This document shows, one piece after another, positions 11,674-21,432 of a stretch of DNA of 64,000 bases. The position numbers and the translations under genes are program-made. Numbering within the stretch: the first letter of the stretch is position 1; each line of letters opens with the position of its first letter. The DNA is from an uncultured Mycoplasmatota bacterium (lineage in GTDB: Bacteria; Bacillota_I; Bacilli_A; RF39; UBA660). The DNA lies in contig CAMFED010000002.1 in assembly GCA_945949305.1 (NCBI GenBank), forward strand, positions 14,605 through 78,604. The letters are read 5' to 3'. Below the pieces are notes generated by a model. That model did not search any database. It saw only the letters and a program-made list of their open reading frames with translations, and was not told the origin of the DNA.

Positions 11674-12090
11674 TTAAATACCATAATCAGTATTTAAAAT
11701 TGAACTATCTTGTGTATCAGTATAAGTCGTAGTATTACTACTTGAAGAATTAAATAAATCGTTCAAAACTTCATTGAAATCGGTATTATTAGAAGTCATA
11801 TTATGATATCTATCATAAGCTTGATCTAATTCTTTTAATACTGTTTCATATTTAATACCATTTTTAGAATTTTCAATCATTGATTTTTTATAATAAAAAA
11901 CTTGGCTTACTCCATAAGCTGCCCAAGGAAGACTAGCACTTGCTGTAATCCAAGGTAATGATCCTGTATAGCCATTACTAATACAATAAAATGCTAATAC
12001 AATATAGGCTAAACTTGTAATCCAAATTAAAGCAGATTCTTGAATCAATAAACTTTTAGAAAATTCTTTTTTATTTTTTCTATGTCTCAT
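11674..12090 (-). CDS. membrane protein (holin candidate)
   Basis: Two predicted transmembrane segments. It is adjacent to the endolysin and its start overlaps the upstream stop (ATGA). Confidence 0.4.
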   Translation of the reverse strand: MRHRKNKKEFSKSLLIQESALIWITSLAYIVLAFYCISNGYTGSLPWITASASLPWAAYGVSQVFYYKKSMIENSKNGIKYETVLKELDQAYDRYHNMTSNNTDFNEVLNDLFNSSSSNTTTYTDTQDSSILNTDYGI

Positions 12091-12308
12091 TATATTAAAG
12101 ATTTATCCTTTAAAATACGATATAAAACTGTAATCATTTCTTCACGAGTCATAAACTTCTTATACATTTTACGGCCTTTTTCGTCACCTTTAATATATCC
12201 ATTTTTTTCTGCCCAAGCACGAGCATCTGTAGAATAAGTATTAGGATTTTTTTCAGCTAATTCAATTAAATAATTATTCATCATTTCATTAAATGTTTCT
12301 TGTGTCAT
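12090..12308 (-). CDS. hypothetical protein (in frame with the endolysin, separated by a single TAG)
   Basis: Its own RBS gaggagg lies 8 nt upstream of the ATG, but the gene is also in frame with the endolysin across the TAG at 12336-12338. Confidence 0.4.
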   Translation of the reverse strand: MTQETFNEMMNNYLIELAEKNPNTYSTDARAWAEKNGYIKGDEKGRKMYKKFMTREEMITVLYRILKDKSLI

Positions 12309-12335
12309 ATCTTCATCCTCCTCAACAACTCCAAG

Positions 12336-13393
12336 CTAAGCATTAACCTTAGCAGCAATATCTCCATGACGACTATATAAATATTCGCCGGGACAAGATT
12401 TATTAGTATAATCTCTATGAACTGTCATATTACATCCATTTAAATGATTTACTCTATCATTTTTATTAGTAGACCATACTAATTTTTTTATATTATTTCT
12501 TTTACAAATATCAACTAGAAGTTTAATTAAAGCCGCATATGCTTTATCAGTAACGGCATATGGACTTGTAGTATCACTAGCTACTTCAATGGTAATAGCA
12601 CGATTATCATTAGCTGCATTAGAAGAGCACCATGAACGATCTTTTTCTTCAACATACATACCAATTCTACCATCAGGGCCAATACCATAATTAGAAGAAG
12701 CTTGTTTTGATGTCGGCGCAAATATGTTTCCAAGAGCTTCAACAGAACATTGTCCAACTACACAATGAATTGTAACAGTATCAATTACATGATTACGAGG
12801 ACTAGTTTTATTAGGACTAATCTTAGTATAATTAACTAAAGGACTATTAGTTTTACCAAATCCATATTGGTTACTTGTATCAGTATCAACGTCTCCAGTG
12901 TCTGTTACTGCTGGATTATAAATAAATCCAAGAAATTTATATCCAGCGCCTGCGCCCCAGTTACCATTTCCTTTTTCACGAGTAGCATTCCAGAATGGAT
13001 TTTTACTGCCCCAACCACTCTCAGAAGTCATAATTTTTGTAGGACTATAAATCTTTTCAACAATAGCAACGTGTCCAACACCGTCTCCACTATTTAAAGT
13101 GGGGCCACCTCGCCATACCATACAAGCTCCAAGCTTTGGAGTCTATCCCATTGGAATACCAGTATTATTATATTGCGGAAAACGTTCAGCATTAACTGGA
13201 CTTAAATATTTACAATATCCATATCCGCCGATTTCATTAAAACGGCCATATGCGTATCCAACACAATTACTTAAAACATCATTCTATTTATCTGTTGGAC
13301 TGCCTTTAATAGCATAAGAATACCCACCATTAGCTTTAGTAATATAATATTTATTACCAGCTTCTGGACGAGTTGTTCTCATTTTAAAAGCCA
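12336..13393 (-). CDS. endolysin: N-terminal CHAP peptidase + C-terminal amidase_2 (N-acetylmuramoyl-L-alanine amidase)
   Basis: C-terminal HRDYTNKSCPG amidase_2 signature. N-terminal Cys/His CHAP-like segment (CVGYAYGRF ... GHVAIVEK). Two in-frame TAGs sit in the N-terminal part. Confidence 0.7.
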
Positions 13394-13462
13394 TATATAT
13401 TCCTCCTTTTTAAGGTTATAAAATTAGCCAAAAGAGAATTTAACTCTTTTGGCTAAATAAAA

Positions 13463-14951: not shown

Positions 14952-15022
14952 CCTTTCTTTAGAATTGTAAGAATAAAGGCTTAAATTCTCTTATTATTTA
15001 TAAATATTAGTATAAAAATATT

Positions 15023-15470
15023 ACTCACTTTTGTCCTTGGCGCGATTCGCGCGGATACGCTTATAGAATTTATCTTTTCCATCTATCCAATCTCTTAAAT
15101 ATTTTTGGTATGGCGGAATTAATTCATTTCTAATAAAATCTAAGTAATTTTCTCGTTCTCGAATCTATCTCCGCAATGTTTTAGTTTCATAAGAATTATA
15201 ATTAAAATTTTTAGATTGTGTCATTGAATAATATAATTGTTTTAGAGTTTTTAATTCAGTCTTAACTTCTTCACGATGAACACGTAATAATTGAATTTGT
15301 AATCTCCATTCAGCAATGGTCATTCCAGTATTTTCATTCATCATATCTTGGTCTTCTGGATGACAATGCGCGATTCCAGTATATTTTATATTATTATAAT
15401 CACATGAACAAGTTGCGGTTCCAGTATCAGGGTCCCATTCATATTTAGCATTTTTTACTTTAAGTTCCAT
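15023..15470 (-). CDS. hypothetical protein
   Basis: ORF 15165-15470 extended through one TAG to the TAA stop at 15023. Confidence 0.35.
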
Positions 15471-15615
15471 ATGTTACTCCTTTTATATATTTCTTTATAT
15501 AATTATACCATTTTTTTTAAGTAAAATCAATATTCTGACATTTTTGATCAAAAAATTGCTAGCGTGCCAGAATTTCCGAACTACGGCCGATTTCGATATC
15601 TAAGCATAAAAAATC

Positions 15616-15641
15616 CCTTATGAGATTTCTCTCATAAGGGA
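15616..15641 (-). terminator. rho-independent terminator downstream of the flotillin gene
   Basis: Hairpin cccttatgag...ctcataaggg followed by a T-run on the minus strand. Confidence 0.55.
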
Positions 15642-15648
15642 TTGAGTA

Positions 15649-17037
15649 TTAATTTTCTTTCTTTGCGATAAAGGAATTAAGCAACTGTGCAAGATCAATG
15701 CCAGTGGCTTCAGATACAGCCTTAGTAATCTGATCAGCCGTTTTCATAACATCACCAGCAAGCTTGGCACTATTGCCTTCGCCATACATGGTAATTTTAT
15801 CAACGTTCGTCAGAGGCGCAGAAGCATTAGCAACAATCTTCGGCAGAGCATCGAAGTACATTTCCATGATGGATGCTTCACCCATCTTCTTTTGTGCTTC
15901 TGCTTTCTTTTCGATAGCAGCAGCTTCTGCTTCACCAACTGCGGCAATACCAGCAGCCTTCTGTTCAGCAGCATACTTCTCAGCTTCAGCTTTTGCTTTC
16001 ATAGCGCGAGCTTCCTGTTCAATTTCATAAGCACGAGCTTCAGCATCTCTCTGACGCTTAATCAGATCAGCCGCAGCCTTCTGTTCAGCCGCATACTTGT
16101 CAGCATCAGCCTGCTTACGCACAAGGGCATCCAGTTCATATTCCTTCAACTGAATCTGCTTCTGCTTCAAATCAGCTTCGCGTTCTGCCTTAGCAATATT
16201 AGCGTCAGTAGCAGCAACATCTCTCAACTTACGCTGATTCTCTGCCTCAATGCCAGCCGCAGCATCAGCCTGAGCCTGACGAGTATCAGCTTCCTGCTTC
16301 AATTGAGCCTTCTTAATTGCCAAGTCATTATTACGAACTGCCATTTCTTCAGCAGCCTTAACCTTAGCTTCATTAGACTGCTTAGCATTTTCTGCCTTAG
16401 CAACCTCAATTTCACGTTCAGCATTAGACTTAGCAATTGCTGCGTTTTTACTAATCTGAGCAACGTTATCAATACCAAGATTGGTAATAACATCATTATC
16501 ATCAGAGAAGTTCTGAACATTGAAAGTAATCAACTGAAGACCATACCGAGCCAGATCAGGAACCGCATTCTCCTGAACTTTCTCACTGAATAATTTTCTA
16601 TCGCTAACCATATCAGTCAGTTTCATCTGACCAACAATTTCACGAATATTACCTTCCAAAAGGTCATTAATCTTAGTAGCAATAGTATCTCTATCAACAT
16701 TCAAGAAGTTCTGTGCGGCAAGAGCAATCATTTCATCAGTCTCGCCAACTTTAACAGATACAGTAGAATCAACTTTAACATTAATATATTCAGCAGTAGG
16801 GACAGCAGAACCAGTCTTTACATCAATCTGAATTGCGCCAAGATACAACTTATCCAATCGTTCAAAGAAAGGAATCTTAATACCGGCTTTACCGATTAGA
16901 ATACGAGGTTTCTTGTGAGCACCACTAATAATGAAAGCCATATCAGGCGGAGCTTTCACATAACCACTACACAGAAGGATAAAAACGAAAATAACGCCCA
17001 ATACAATGGGAATCAAAGTAATAAGAAAAGCAGGCAT
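15649..17037 (-). CDS. flotillin-like SPFH/band-7 protein
   Basis: N-terminal transmembrane helix, an SPFH domain, and a long Ala/Glu-rich EA-repeat coiled coil typical of flotillins (FloT/YqiK). Intact 462-aa ORF with GC higher than the genome background. Confidence 0.8.
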   Translation of the reverse strand: MPAFLITLIPIVLGVIFVFILLCSGYVKAPPDMAFIISGAHKKPRILIGKAGIKIPFFERLDKLYLGAIQIDVKTGSAVPTAEYINVKVDSTVSVKVGETDEMIALAAQNFLNVDRDTIATKINDLLEGNIREIVGQMKLTDMVSDRKLFSEKVQENAVPDLARYGLQLITFNVQNFSDDNDVITNLGIDNVAQISKNAAIAKSNAEREIEVAKAENAKQSNEAKVKAAEEMAVRNNDLAIKKAQLKQEADTRQAQADAAAGIEAENQRKLRDVAATDANIAKAEREADLKQKQIQLKEYELDALVRKQADADKYAAEQKAAADLIKRQRDAEARAYEIEQEARAMKAKAEAEKYAAEQKAAGIAAVGEAEAAAIEKKAEAQKKMGEASIMEMYFDALPKIVANASAPLTNVDKITMYGEGNSAKLAGDVMKTADQITKAVSEATGIDLAQLLNSFIAKKEN

Positions 17038-17084
17038 TTTATTTTTCCTTTCATTAAAATATTTAATTGTTTATAATTTATATG

Positions 17085-17651
17085 TTAAAGAAATGATTTA
17101 CATTCCTCAACTTTATCTTTCATCTGTTGGATAATATCATCCAACAATACAGGGTATCCATCATGGGAATCAACACCTACATGATACATAAAAGGCATAT
17201 CCTGATAAAAATTTGTAATTTGATGGGTATGACCATAAAGATTAAGAGTCATTTGATGAAGGCTTTCTCTTTGAAGATTTCCTGTCATAGTAGGATAATG
17301 GCTCATATAAAAATAATATTTTCTATATTTTAAAATAGTAGCATCGCCAAGAAATCCGATATTAGCATTTTGTTCATCTATATAAAGATTTACTCTAACA
17401 TCAGTATCATGATTTCCTCGTACAAAATACTTATTGCCATTAAGCCGTTTAAGACATTTAATGCCTTCATCATTGTTACCGAGCATCAAATCTCCAAGAA
17501 TATATACTGTGTCATCAGACTGAACAAGAGAATTAAATTTCTCGATCTGAATTTCATTCATTTCTTCAACTGAAGAATAACCTCGTGCTTTCCAGACAAA
17601 TTCTCTATCATGCCCGAAATGAAAATCACTTGTAAGCCAAATATTACTCAT
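17085..17651 (-). CDS. calcineurin-like metallophosphoesterase
   Basis: GDLMLGN ... GNHD motifs. Confidence 0.7.
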   Translation of the reverse strand: MSNIWLTSDFHFGHDREFVWKARGYSSVEEMNEIQIEKFNSLVQSDDTVYILGDLMLGNNDEGIKCLKRLNGNKYFVRGNHDTDVRVNLYIDEQNANIGFLGDATILKYRKYYFYMSHYPTMTGNLQRESLHQMTLNLYGHTHQITNFYQDMPFMYHVGVDSHDGYPVLLDDIIQQMKDKVEECKSFL

Positions 17652-19535: not shown

Positions 19536-19720
19536 GTAAGTTTTACAATTAAAGTAATAAGATTCATTACTAAGCAACTAGCTAGCATCATAACAGTCCA
19601 AGTAAGACCTTCTCCCCAATCTTTATGGATTGCTTTAATAATCCAATTGACAAAAGAAAATAGCCAGAAAATAGCAACTAAAATCCAAATTACGAATAAG
19701 ATAATCTCAGGAACACTCAT
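19523..19720 (-). CDS. small membrane protein
   Basis: Two hydrophobic helices. Confidence 0.3.
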   Translation of the reverse strand: MSVPEIILFVIWILVAIFWLFSFVNWIIKAIHKDWGEGLTWTVMMLASCLVMNLITLIVKLTKVG

Positions 19721-20132
19721 TTTGGATCTCCTCTCTTACTTTCATAAGTAAAAGTCCTAAATTATTTTCTCCAGTACCATTACAAACACCCCAATAGCAA
19801 TCTCCCCAAGTATTACCTTCTTCAAGGTAAGCATCTCCAGTATCAAGAAGTTTCTGCCTTAACTCAGGAATAGCAAATTTCTTGCGCAATCCTTCAAGCA
19901 TAATATCCTTTTTGACGTATTCCCAATCAGGTCTAATCTTAACCTTTCGACCTAATCGTTTTGCTTGGCCTGGTGTAGGAGCATTAGCAATTTCCAAAAG
20001 ATCTTCCTGATTAGTCGCTTTCATCGCTTGAAAGTAGTGTTCCATTGTAGGGAACACTACTCCATTTACTGTGAAAGGACTCAATTCATAATTGCTTAAA
20101 AAAGAATATTTGTTTCTAAAACTATCAATCAT
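19707..20132 (-). CDS. NADAR (YbiA-like, DUF1768) domain protein
   Basis: PF..MEHYFQA.K ... GDCYWG pattern typical of the NADAR family. Confidence 0.6.
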   Translation of the reverse strand: MIDSFRNKYSFLSNYELSPFTVNGVVFPTMEHYFQAMKATNQEDLLEIANAPTPGQAKRLGRKVKIRPDWEYVKKDIMLEGLRKKFAIPELRQKLLDTGDAYLEEGNTWGDCYWGVCNGTGENNLGLLLMKVREEIQNECS

Positions 20133-20135
20133 AAA

Positions 20136-20936
20136 TTAAAACTCCCAACACGTCCCCTGAGAAGGACCAACTCGGCTGCACATTGGCATAGGTCTAACCT
20201 TATGAATATTTCTCTTATGACGTTCCATAATATTTTTATAAACTTCATAATTTTCAGGAGGAGTGCCAGTCTCAAGGAAGGTATCAAGTACCTCATAAGT
20301 AAAACCAAGATTATCTTCATCAGTTTTACCGCTCAGGCCATCTTCAGGAGCTTTATCAATAAACTTAGCCGGAATGCCAAGAGCATAACCAATAGCTTTC
20401 ACAGCATGAACAGTATAATCACTCAAAGGAGAAAAATCGCCCGCAGAATCACCAAACTTAGTAGAATAACCTACAAAGTCCTCAGAAGCATTACAAGTAT
20501 TAACAACTCGACCATGAAGCATACCTGCGATTGCATAAAGAACAGACATACGAATTCTTGCTGGGCTGTTGGATGTAACCACCGAATTTTCTCTTACATC
20601 ATCAAAAGGAAAAGCATTGTCGAAACTTTCATAAAAAGTATCACAAATCTTACCAATATTTACTTCAATAGTCTGAATCTGAAGATACTGACCAACTTCA
20701 TGCGCAATATCAATATCATGCTGCTTACCCTGTGGCATATAGACACCGATAACCTTATCTTTACCAAGAGCTTCAACACAAAGCTTCGCTGCGACAGTGC
20801 TGTCCTTGCCGCCACTCAGCCCAATAATCGCTTTACAATCAGGACCATTCTCTACGAAATAATTCTTAATCCAGTCTTTAATGTGATTAATTTCAACATT
20901 AATATCTTCAGCAATAGGATAAATAAGAGTACGCAT
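20136..20936 (-). CDS. nadE: NH3-dependent NAD+ synthetase
   Basis: SGGKDS PP-loop motif with NadE-like length and architecture. Confidence 0.8.
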   Translation of the reverse strand: MRTLIYPIAEDINVEINHIKDWIKNYFVENGPDCKAIIGLSGGKDSTVAAKLCVEALGKDKVIGVYMPQGKQHDIDIAHEVGQYLQIQTIEVNIGKICDTFYESFDNAFPFDDVRENSVVTSNSPARIRMSVLYAIAGMLHGRVVNTCNASEDFVGYSTKFGDSAGDFSPLSDYTVHAVKAIGYALGIPAKFIDKAPEDGLSGKTDEDNLGFTYEVLDTFLETGTPPENYEVYKNIMERHKRNIHKVRPMPMCSRVGPSQGTCWEF

Positions 20937-20937
20937 A

Positions 20938-21432
20938 TTACTTTTCCTCCAATCTATAAATGTAAATATTTTTGTTAGTAAGAATATTTTGAATCATAGT
21001 ACGAATAATTTCCCAATTGGCACCACCACGATCACTACCAATTTTATAAGGAAAAGCAATCGAAGTACCATCCGCGAGTTTAGAGTTCAATTCCTCAAGA
21101 CAAGAAGCAAATGCTTCATAATTGGTATATCGTTTACCGTCATAACCAAATTTATCTTGAGCATACATATTCGCAATCGTATGACCATCATTTGTCTTAA
21201 CAAGCTGTGTTTTTCCAAGAGGAGCAGGATTATTAATAAAATACATCTGATAAGCCTGCGCTACTTCTGGCCATTTATCTTTAATCTGTTTAGCAACACC
21301 AGATCCCATTGTTTTCTGACAATTTACTTGATGGCAAATTACACAGCCATGATTATCAAGTAAATCGCCATTTAATTCGTGATAAGTATTCATATTATTC
21401 TCCTTCTGGATACATATTCTCTCTAACTTCAT
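20938..21432 (-). CDS. macro domain (ADP-ribose binding/processing) protein
   Basis: HQVNCQ ... MGSGVAKQI macrodomain signature. Confidence 0.7.
   Translation of the reverse strand: MKLERICIQKENNMNTYHELNGDLLDNHGCVICHQVNCQKTMGSGVAKQIKDKWPEVAQAYQMYFINNPAPLGKTQLVKTNDGHTIANMYAQDKFGYDGKRYTNYEAFASCLEELNSKLADGTSIAFPYKIGSDRGGANWEIIRTMIQNILTNKNIYIYRLEEK

Follow-up and report, generated by a model that had tools for sequence, protein, structure and literature searches.

A complete flotillin gene in a conserved slot of large TAG-recoded phages

A 64,000-nt stretch of contig CAMFED010000002.1 (assembly GCA_945949305.1, positions 14,605 to 78,604), hereafter the window, carries a complete flotillin gene. 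The gene probably encodes a genuine, functional scaffold of the FloT/flotillin-1 type and is a long-standing accessory gene of phages of approximately 100-200 kb in which TAG encodes glutamine; its mode of action is one that we infer. The phages that bear it probably infect Oscillospiraceae-like Clostridia of the gut and rumen. The gene and the parts of its product are as follows.

15649 to 17037, minus strand: flotillin coding sequence, 462 amino acids (aa), ATG to TAA, from the list of open reading frames (ORFs)
17046 to 17050, minus strand: Shine-Dalgarno-like AAGGA, 9-13 nt before the flotillin ATG, read directly in the sequence
16966 to 17034, minus strand: hydrophobic N-terminal membrane anchor, aa 2-24, from hydropathy and a modelled helix
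16417 to 16947, minus strand: SPFH / Band 7 domain, aa 31-207, from Pfam PF01145, the model and structure matches
15883 to 16416, minus strand: Ala/Glu/Lys-rich helical region, aa 208-385, from composition and repeat counts
15751 to 15993, minus strand: match to the flotillin C-terminal domain, aa 349-429, from Pfam PF15975 and conserved columns in an alignment of phage copies (A1)

The protein has the testable defining features of a flotillin. The initial annotation, made from the letters alone, had described a complete flotillin with an N-terminal anchor, an SPFH domain and an EA-repeat coiled coil. The Pfam matches, the FloT profile, the alignment with flotillin-1 and the predicted fold all agree with this description, and both Pfam models that it had named, PF01145 and PF15975, match. 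The Kyte-Doolittle 19-mer maximum is 3.15 at aa 4-22 and AlphaFold places a helix at aa 3-23; this predicted anchor corresponds to the N-terminal membrane association of flotillins. The SPFH domain, on which the description depends, is detected at aa 31-207 by Band_7 (PF01145), with E=1.8e-18 and 67.6 bits where the cutoff is 23.6, and the alpha/beta domain is modelled over aa 35-179. In the Ala/Glu/Lys-rich region, Ala accounts for 28% of residues, Glu for 14% and Lys for 13.5%. The dipeptide EA occurs 10 times and AE 11 times, and KYAAEQKAA is repeated, once at aa 314 and once at aa 354. In the AlphaFold model, the EA-rich stretch falls inside a single long helix (aa 189-358).

The C-terminal domain match (PF15975, Flot), at aa 349-429, reaches 27.3 bits with the cutoff at 27 and is marginal when taken alone, but it is backed by a collinear alignment with flotillin-1 and by end-to-end coverage of the FloT profile. 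The domain includes the clade-invariant stretch KKAEAQKKMGEAS...APL.NVD..T.YG. Because the C-terminal block is near-invariant among phage copies that are 48-81% identical (alignment A1), it argues that assembly has been retained, being compatible with assembly without amounting to proof of it. The NCBIfam FloT profile (NF058507) is covered from position 6 to 475 of 477 with 229.4 bits. This is below the equivalog cutoff of 700 bits, and the functions of Bacillus subtilis FloT are therefore not simply transferable to the phage protein.

The relationship to flotillins is the strongest in both sequence and structure searches. In the PDB sequence search, the best matches are human flotillin-1 (E=4e-47, aa 30-452 against residues 6-419) and flotillin-2 (E=3e-37). 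The top Foldseek matches of the model are the flotillin complexes 9bq2 and 9l3g (E=1.8e-12). The SPFH domains of stomatin, prohibitin, HflK/C and QmcA follow as lower matches, together with erlin and with major vault protein (MVP) chains at E ~1e-4.

The window DNA is phage DNA and not host DNA. All substantial ORFs are on the minus strand. Counted over ORFs of 100 aa or more, the minus strand encodes 14,402 aa with TAG as a stop and 19,648 aa when TAG is read through, and many adjacent fragments then fuse. At the TAG positions of window genes, homologues have Gln at 46% of positions and the runner-up, Lys, at 10%; judged from these comparisons, TAG is read as Gln in this phage. Late genes have TAG at 36% of their Gln-type codons and hardly any CAG, while TAG-free genes retain CAG. 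The region from 40 to 64 kb is rich in TAG and encodes tail-fibre proteins (PHROGs), and a Sak4-like protein is encoded at 141-1130 (PHROG match). At the flotillin, the window shares 99% identity with the 201,031-bp IMG/VR contig 3300045988_151351. In the assembly collection, 47 blocks contain exactly this flotillin protein; the neighbours are the same in 6/6 contigs shown, and a 99%-identical protein carries the JGI label 'flotillin'. The initial annotation had named contaminating host DNA as the circumstance that would undo it. This is not congruent with the conserved slot that the gene occupies in many viral contigs, whose borders in the window are the following.

17085 to 17651, minus strand: metallophosphoesterase gene MPE1, left border of the flotillin slot (Pfam Metallophos_2)
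15021 to 15470, minus strand: unk149, a 149-aa gene with one in-frame TAG, right border of the slot (homologues in 47 loci; phrog_32438)

A pattern scan of IMG/VR for the flotillin yields 66 viral loci with 46-99% identity, mostly on contigs of 100-200 kb. MPE1 adjoins the flotillin in 59 loci, with a spacing of 47 nt in the window, and the two genes are presumably co-transcribed. The gene order AAA_33 kinase, MPE1, flotillin, unk149 and PIN-PhoH, followed by lysin, TM138 and GyrB, is kept down to approximately 53% flotillin identity. The same slot also holds more divergent flotillins (35-44% identity). The flotillin is thus a phage gene by its conserved position in viral genomes, together with phage hallmark PHROGs and TAG recoding.

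Presence and absence were scored in a second IMG/VR scan with an MPE1 profile, in which the best 80 loci were taken and 77 of these had enough downstream sequence. The flotillin lies directly downstream of MPE1 in 41 of the 77 informative loci. It is accessory and dispensable, and its status as a core gene of the clade was dropped on this count. In 5 of the 77 loci (L166, L167, L168, L169 and L171), the flotillin slot holds a 323-aa membrane protein with Band_7 only (Pfam E=4.3e-27). These loci, for example L167:5147-6118 and L166:5904-6686, are close relatives of the flotillin-bearing phage L165. The Band_7-only protein is a non-orthologous swap inside the SPFH superfamily. Because a different SPFH subfamily replaces the flotillin at the same position, the swap points to an SPFH-type function as the trait that selection keeps at this slot.

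The ratio of nonsynonymous to synonymous substitution rates (dN/dS) between the window flotillin and its phage homologues is 0.09-0.2 for most pairs and 0.32 for a distant pair (L057). By these ratios, the gene is under purifying selection. Synonymous divergence (dS) among phage flotillins ranges from 0.4 to more than 3, i.e. to saturation. In the neighbour-joining tree, the syntenic phage copies and one rumen bacterial group are monophyletic in 179 of 200 bootstrap replicates (89.5%). The closest chromosomal flotillins outside this clade are 46-57% identical (bacterial data, one genome per species) and come from Oscillospiraceae, Acutalibacteraceae, Lachnospiraceae, Ruminococcus, Romboutsia and others. 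The acquisition of the flotillin is old, its source most likely being the Oscillospiraceae part of the flotillin tree, with vertical inheritance thereafter.

The rumen group consists of eight contigs (L070-L077) of Oscillospiraceae/Clostridia metagenome-assembled genomes (MAGs) with a flotillin that is 66-70% identical. Seven of these contigs have a GC content of ~61-64% and L072 has 51%. One locus of the group was inspected, L070, and its neighbours are housekeeping-like by eye (RpiB-like, cytochrome c biogenesis, Upp-like, TsaB-like and FtsW-like). The group is nested among the phage copies in 200/200 replicates. On this branching pattern, it probably received its flotillin by transfer from phage to bacterium. 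Several other hits in MAGs, with 57-81% identity, come from phage contigs that were binned wrongly (L067-L069 and L080); these contigs share 8-11 window genes and the low phage GC content. The MAGs are labelled 'uncultured Mollicutes', 'Clostridium sp. SUG910' and 'uncultured Eubacterium sp.'. The SUG910 MAG has been taken as a possible lysogen in the MVP preprint (10.1101/2023.11.10.566534).

A second, unrelated viral group (L060-L066) has low GC content (0.26-0.29), contigs of up to 144 kb and a flotillin that is 46-47% identical in a different context. The neighbours in L061 and L063 include, by eye, a DNA polymerase III alpha-like gene and NrdD, and PHROG families of unknown function. Because the flotillin of this group stands in an unrelated phage context, phages have acquired flotillins more than once.

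The flotillin differs from its surroundings in composition. The initial annotation called the gene GC-rich, which holds relative to the surroundings (41.7% against 31.3% for the window) and in no other sense. Its GC content at third codon positions (GC3) is 0.325 against a median of 0.178, a rank of 54th among 57 window genes. CAG accounts for 22 of the 24 Gln codons, whereas late genes use CAA and TAG. None of the 24 Gln-type codons is TAG (P=0.0035 at the window-wide rate, 2e-5 at the late-gene rate). The gene is TAG-free, as had been noted, but this is not peculiar to it: the property is common to the TAG-poor block of 21 genes between 15 and 36.6 kb, which has 3 TAG among 180 Gln-type codons.

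The same bias is present across the clade. In 58 phage loci, the GC3 of the flotillin is above the median of its neighbours in 58/58 (mean 0.40 vs 0.245), and the CAG share of CAA+CAG is 0.86 in the flotillin vs 0.35 in the neighbours. The 58 homologues contain 1 TAG in total, as against 561 of 5,855 Gln-type codons in neighbouring genes. Since synonymous sites are saturated between lineages and the bias nevertheless persists, the GC3, CAG and TAG bias is maintained and is not the fading trace of a transfer. Recoded stops have been proposed to mark late genes in such phages (PMC10607447). Because the flotillin avoids TAG, the simplest reading under this proposal is that it is translated early, while TAG still terminates, with host-like codon usage.

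The end of the gene and the start of the next transcription unit are marked by the following signals.

15606 to 15643, minus strand: intrinsic terminator of the flotillin gene, with a 14-bp stem, a 4-nt loop and T6 (terminator scan)
15502 to 15530, minus strand: sigma-70-like promoter of the next gene, TTGATT, 17 nt, TG-TATAAT (promoter scan, 10/12 matches, extended -10)

The stem of the terminator (15643..15612) begins 5 nt past the stop codon and has a free energy of -18.8 kcal/mol; with its 14 bp and T6 it bears out the claim of the initial annotation that the gene has its own terminator. An equivalent hairpin and T-run follows the flotillin in 45 of 48 distinct phage loci, as against 11 of 300 random 70-mers, and the stem sequences vary among loci. 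Therefore, the flotillin regularly closes a transcription unit. The -10 region of the downstream promoter is conserved in an alignment of homologous intergenic regions, and this promoter marks a new transcription unit beyond the flotillin.

Between the flotillin terminator and the next promoter sits a further element (15560-15600, minus strand), with the core CGGCCGTAG at 15581-15589. It is conserved in the homologous loci L003, L004 and L059 and has variant forms in L010 and L049. No Rfam family matches the element, the Rfam scan of the window having returned only tRNAs. As a recurring promoter or operator motif, CGGCCGTAG was rejected, as it occurs a single time in the window, no more than chance. 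The element may be a second terminator or an operator.

In the proposed mechanism, the flotillin would be made in the early phase of infection, with the host still reading TAG as stop. Its N-terminal helix would insert into the cytoplasmic membrane, and the long helix and C-terminal domain would oligomerise into a dome or cage that fences off membrane patches, as in solved SPFH assemblies. Cage formation by this fold class is established (PDB 9bq2, 9l3g, 7wi3, 8z5g, 9oh9 and 8rrh). The phage would add to, or take over, the host flotillin scaffold, and mixed phage/host assemblies are conceivable because host-type relatives are 46-57% identical. The likely benefit would be that membrane integrity is kept, and membrane-bound complexes stay organised, through a long infection by a large phage. 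A remodelling of host membrane domains, which the initial annotation had suggested, is a possible role.

Several observations weigh against a functional scaffold of this kind. In 31 of the 77 informative MPE1 loci, the slot lacks an SPFH gene and MPE1 is followed either by unk149 and PIN-PhoH or by unrelated small genes. No nfeD or ftsH partner is linked to the flotillin in the window or in related phage loci; therefore, no client is implied by gene context. The tree is a neighbour-joining tree on pattern-selected sequences, not a maximum likelihood tree on an unbiased sample, and both the method and the pattern-biased sampling limit the confidence in the direction of transfer between phage and bacterium. 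The AlphaFold monomer model is moderate (mean predicted local distance difference test score of 63.8, and below 50 in the C-terminal 100 residues), and its C-terminal part is not used for any conclusion. Lastly, the MVP, DUF2828, NAMPT and NAD synthase genes are also TAG-avoiding and high in GC3, which may mark a gene class. The genes that share TAG-freeness and raised GC content with the flotillin are probably early and cell-derived.

Among the alternatives, a protease cage is unlikely. The flotillin would enclose or regulate host FtsH or another membrane enzyme, with phage proteins stabilised or host proteostasis altered. The structure search also returns HflK/C-FtsH cages (7wi3 and 9cz2, E ~5e-5 to 1e-4). 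An interaction with FtsH has been reported for the flotillins of B. subtilis, and it was an effect on phage lambda lysogeny that led to the discovery of HflK/C. The replacement of the flotillin in its slot by a prohibitin/HflC-like Band_7 protein also fits a generic SPFH-cage function. However, the best matches are flotillins by a wide margin and not HflK/C, no ftsH or FtsH-substrate-like gene is linked, and sequence identifies no client.

A role in lysis timing or membrane protection is quite improbable. The scaffold would delay or shape holin damage, or repair membrane stress, for a long infection cycle. On the same strand, the third gene downstream encodes a CHAP and amidase endolysin (12090-13394) and the fourth a 138-aa membrane protein (11674-12090). 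Membrane-remodelling host proteins alter the outcome of phage lysis, e.g. DynA in B. subtilis (PMC8844932), and an SPFH protein recruits a phage-shock protein in the same species (PMC8581546). The flotillin is, however, parted from these downstream genes by its terminator and by the separate promoter. Since the endolysin gene has 3 in-frame TAG codons, it is probably expressed in another phase than the flotillin, and the loci without flotillin retain both the lysin and the membrane protein.

Exclusion or counter-defence, in which the flotillin blocks superinfection or neutralises membrane-acting abortive-infection effectors, is very improbable. An accessory gene that is patchy and is swapped in a fixed slot shows a pattern typical of conflict genes, and the early expression suggested by codon use fits such a role. 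Nevertheless, the low dN/dS gives no hint of diversifying selection, and we know of no anti-defence family with an SPFH fold. PADLOC-DB v2 gives no meaningful match (only the coiled-coil protein JetC, E=0.005, 13 bits), for which reason a defence system was rejected as the primary explanation.

Recent host capture or host contamination, with no phage-specific role, is hardly tenable: the 10 GC points above the surroundings, the preference for CAG over CAA and the existence of Clostridial flotillins 46-70% identical, of which those of the rumen Oscillospiraceae group (66-70%) join the phage copies in the tree, are outweighed by the same slot in dozens of viral contigs, a best true chromosomal match of only 70% identity, saturated dS with a GC3 excess that persists in 58/58 loci and dN/dS of 0.09-0.2 for most pairs, and a phage clade (89.5%) in which the bacterial group is nested (200/200), a pattern of phage-to-bacterium transfer or of an old event. 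The phylogeny that the initial annotation had proposed as a check on recent capture thus argues against it, as the phage-specific clade, the saturated dS and the fixed, syntenic slot rule it out.

The window encodes a second protein with a relationship to the SPFH fold.

30753 to 33239, minus strand: MVP-like gene (Pfam MVP_shoulder E=1.8e-19, Vault_3)

The flotillin model matches vault chains of rat, rabbit and human (4v60, 9z4w and 9bw5) at E ~1e-4 in Foldseek, and the MVP shoulder domain is homologous to SPFH (PMC13347060). The earlier claim that the MVP shoulder is SPFH-like is therefore supported at the level of the fold, but hhalign finds no sequence link between the flotillin and the MVP-like protein of the window (probability 0.9%). 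The pair of SPFH-fold proteins that was placed in one region does exist, but the two genes do not adjoin and are 13.7 kb apart. Of 40 viral contigs with an MVP gene, at least 29 have a flotillin as well (25 by contig name and 4 from the MPE1-anchored scan). Viral MVP homologues have been reported in related gut phages, in a preprint that makes no mention of flotillin (10.1101/2023.11.10.566534). The MVP-like gene directly adjoins a gene for a DUF2828/DUF7788/vWA protein (together 30753-35074, minus strand), and both are TAG-free and CAG-preferring.

A more far-reaching reading, which is doubtful, is that the MPE1-unk149 slot is a dedicated 'SPFH cage' position, occupied by flotillins that diverged to different depths or by the non-orthologous Band 7 protein, and that these phages depend early in infection on a membrane cage of their own making. 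Such a cage would perhaps enclose a specific membrane complex of the host, for example FtsH, or hold a replication or assembly site in place. The MVP-like protein, a second cage-former in many of the same genomes, might act together with it. If this were true, these phages would be the first viruses shown to build their own SPFH membrane microdomains, there would be a genetic handle on what bacterial flotillins do, and the rumen Oscillospiraceae flotillin would be a phage-to-host export of a membrane scaffold.

The functional scaffold preferred here reveals no new kind of protein or mechanism. What the analysis adds to the initial annotation is the long residence in a fixed slot with an SPFH swap in some relatives, the clade-wide TAG avoidance with host-like codons and the probable phage-to-bacterium transfer. 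The role of bacterial flotillins is still debated, and phage SPFH proteins have been noted since 2006 without explanation. The present gene is a concrete, testable case of a virus that would benefit from its own membrane scaffold, with flotillin-positive, flotillin-negative and SPFH-swapped sister genomes at hand.

The remaining genes of the window include the CHAP and amidase endolysin, PIN-PhoH, two metallophosphoesterases, the AAA_33 kinase, an RNA ligase, the DUF2828/DUF7788 protein and a protein with an SLH domain. The host is probably Clostridial, with Oscillospiraceae favoured, because the SLH domain and the closest bacterial homologues point there. A megablast search of INPHARED with 12-36 kb of the window gives no match. 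With the flotillin, tblastn against INPHARED returns only 9 records; the best three, human-faecal contigs named 'Bacteriophage sp.', have no annotation.

Five tRNA genes (Cys, Lys, Leu-CAA, Leu-TAA and Thr; ARAGORN, with four confirmed by Rfam) are interspersed with ORFs at 36642-39999 (minus strand). None of these five has the anticodon CTA, and no suppressor tRNA is thus present in this stretch. An ORF in the same region (37861-38604) has 9 TAG codons and is homing endonuclease-like by eye from its translation. A nicotinamide adenine dinucleotide (NAD) module at 19707-24375 (minus strand) comprises NADAR, NAD synthase, a NAMPT-type phosphoribosyltransferase and a phosphoribosyl pyrophosphate synthetase-like protein. 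This agrees with the NAD+ systems reported for gut jumbo phages (PMC11662467).

A biosynthetic cluster resembling those for ribosomally synthesised and post-translationally modified peptides (RiPPs) lies at 40086-52820 (minus strand), in the TAG-rich part with a GC content of 0.20-0.26. It includes a YcaO cyclodehydratase (40086-41864, Pfam 2.8e-27), four radical-SAM-like proteins with CX3CX2C (42145-43506, 43519-44862, 47726-49111 and 49108-50547) and a fusion of radical SAM and glycosyltransferase-2 (51042-52820). Two Ser/Gly/Asn/Thr/Tyr-repeat proteins are possible RiPP precursors: 44878-45645, 'GSSTNSYGSSTNSY...', and 50582-51079, 'SYDGGYRG...'.

Compared with known systems, the phage protein shares with the eukaryotic flotillin-1/flotillin-2 complex (9bq2 and 9l3g) an SPFH domain, a long helix and a C-terminal domain in the same order and collinear. 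It differs in that identity is ~25% (Foldseek) and in that the phage N-terminal helix (aa 2-24) precedes the start of the alignment at aa 30. The eukaryotic complex is built of two paralogues, whereas the phage encodes one protein. The bacterial FloT-type proteins are closer, with 46-57% full-length identity (66-70% in the rumen group), the same N-terminal anchor and the same length class. These relatives also stand alone without an adjacent nfeD (neighbours read by eye). Unlike them, the phage copy belongs to a phage-specific clade and has 462 aa, as against 496-548 aa in the bacterial copies read. In alignment A1, the window flotillin is gapped in the helical region relative to the other phage copies. 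The SPFH-NfeD operon type (QmcA-YbbJ, YuaF-FloT and YqeZ-FloA) differs in context, as the phage flotillin is flanked by MPE1 and unk149 with no NfeD.

The HflK/HflC-FtsH, QmcA-YbbJ, stomatin, prohibitin and erlin cages share the SPFH fold and a helical wall with the phage protein (Foldseek E=5e-6 to 5e-4), and QmcA is also matched by sequence (E=1.7e-8). All of these proteins assemble into membrane-attached oligomers that are closed or dome-shaped. They are, however, of other subfamilies and lack the flotillin C-terminal domain. For HflK/HflC, the matches are at the level of the fold only (E ~5e-5), far below those of flotillins, and the phage has a single gene with no hflK/hflC pair. The major vault protein is likewise matched at the level of the fold, and the same phage encodes an MVP-like protein; in contrast to the flotillin, MVP is soluble and forms closed vaults.

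Literature searches found no study of a phage-encoded flotillin, and no PHROG family matches the flotillin. The Perkons phage paper concerns integration into the host floA gene and not a phage flotillin. SPFH/Band 7 ORFs were annotated in the T4-like phages 44RR, Aeh1 and RB43 in 2006 (PMC1524935). Phage GIB1 has an SPFH lipoprotein, and phage SPFH ORFs were still called unexplained in 2026 (PMC13239085). Vibrio phage KIT04 (LC487410.1) has an annotated 'flotillin family protein', with 27% identity over aa 25-206. These earlier phage SPFH proteins are short and SPFH-only, or distant, whereas the window protein is a complete flotillin from a TAG-recoded clade known only from metagenomes.

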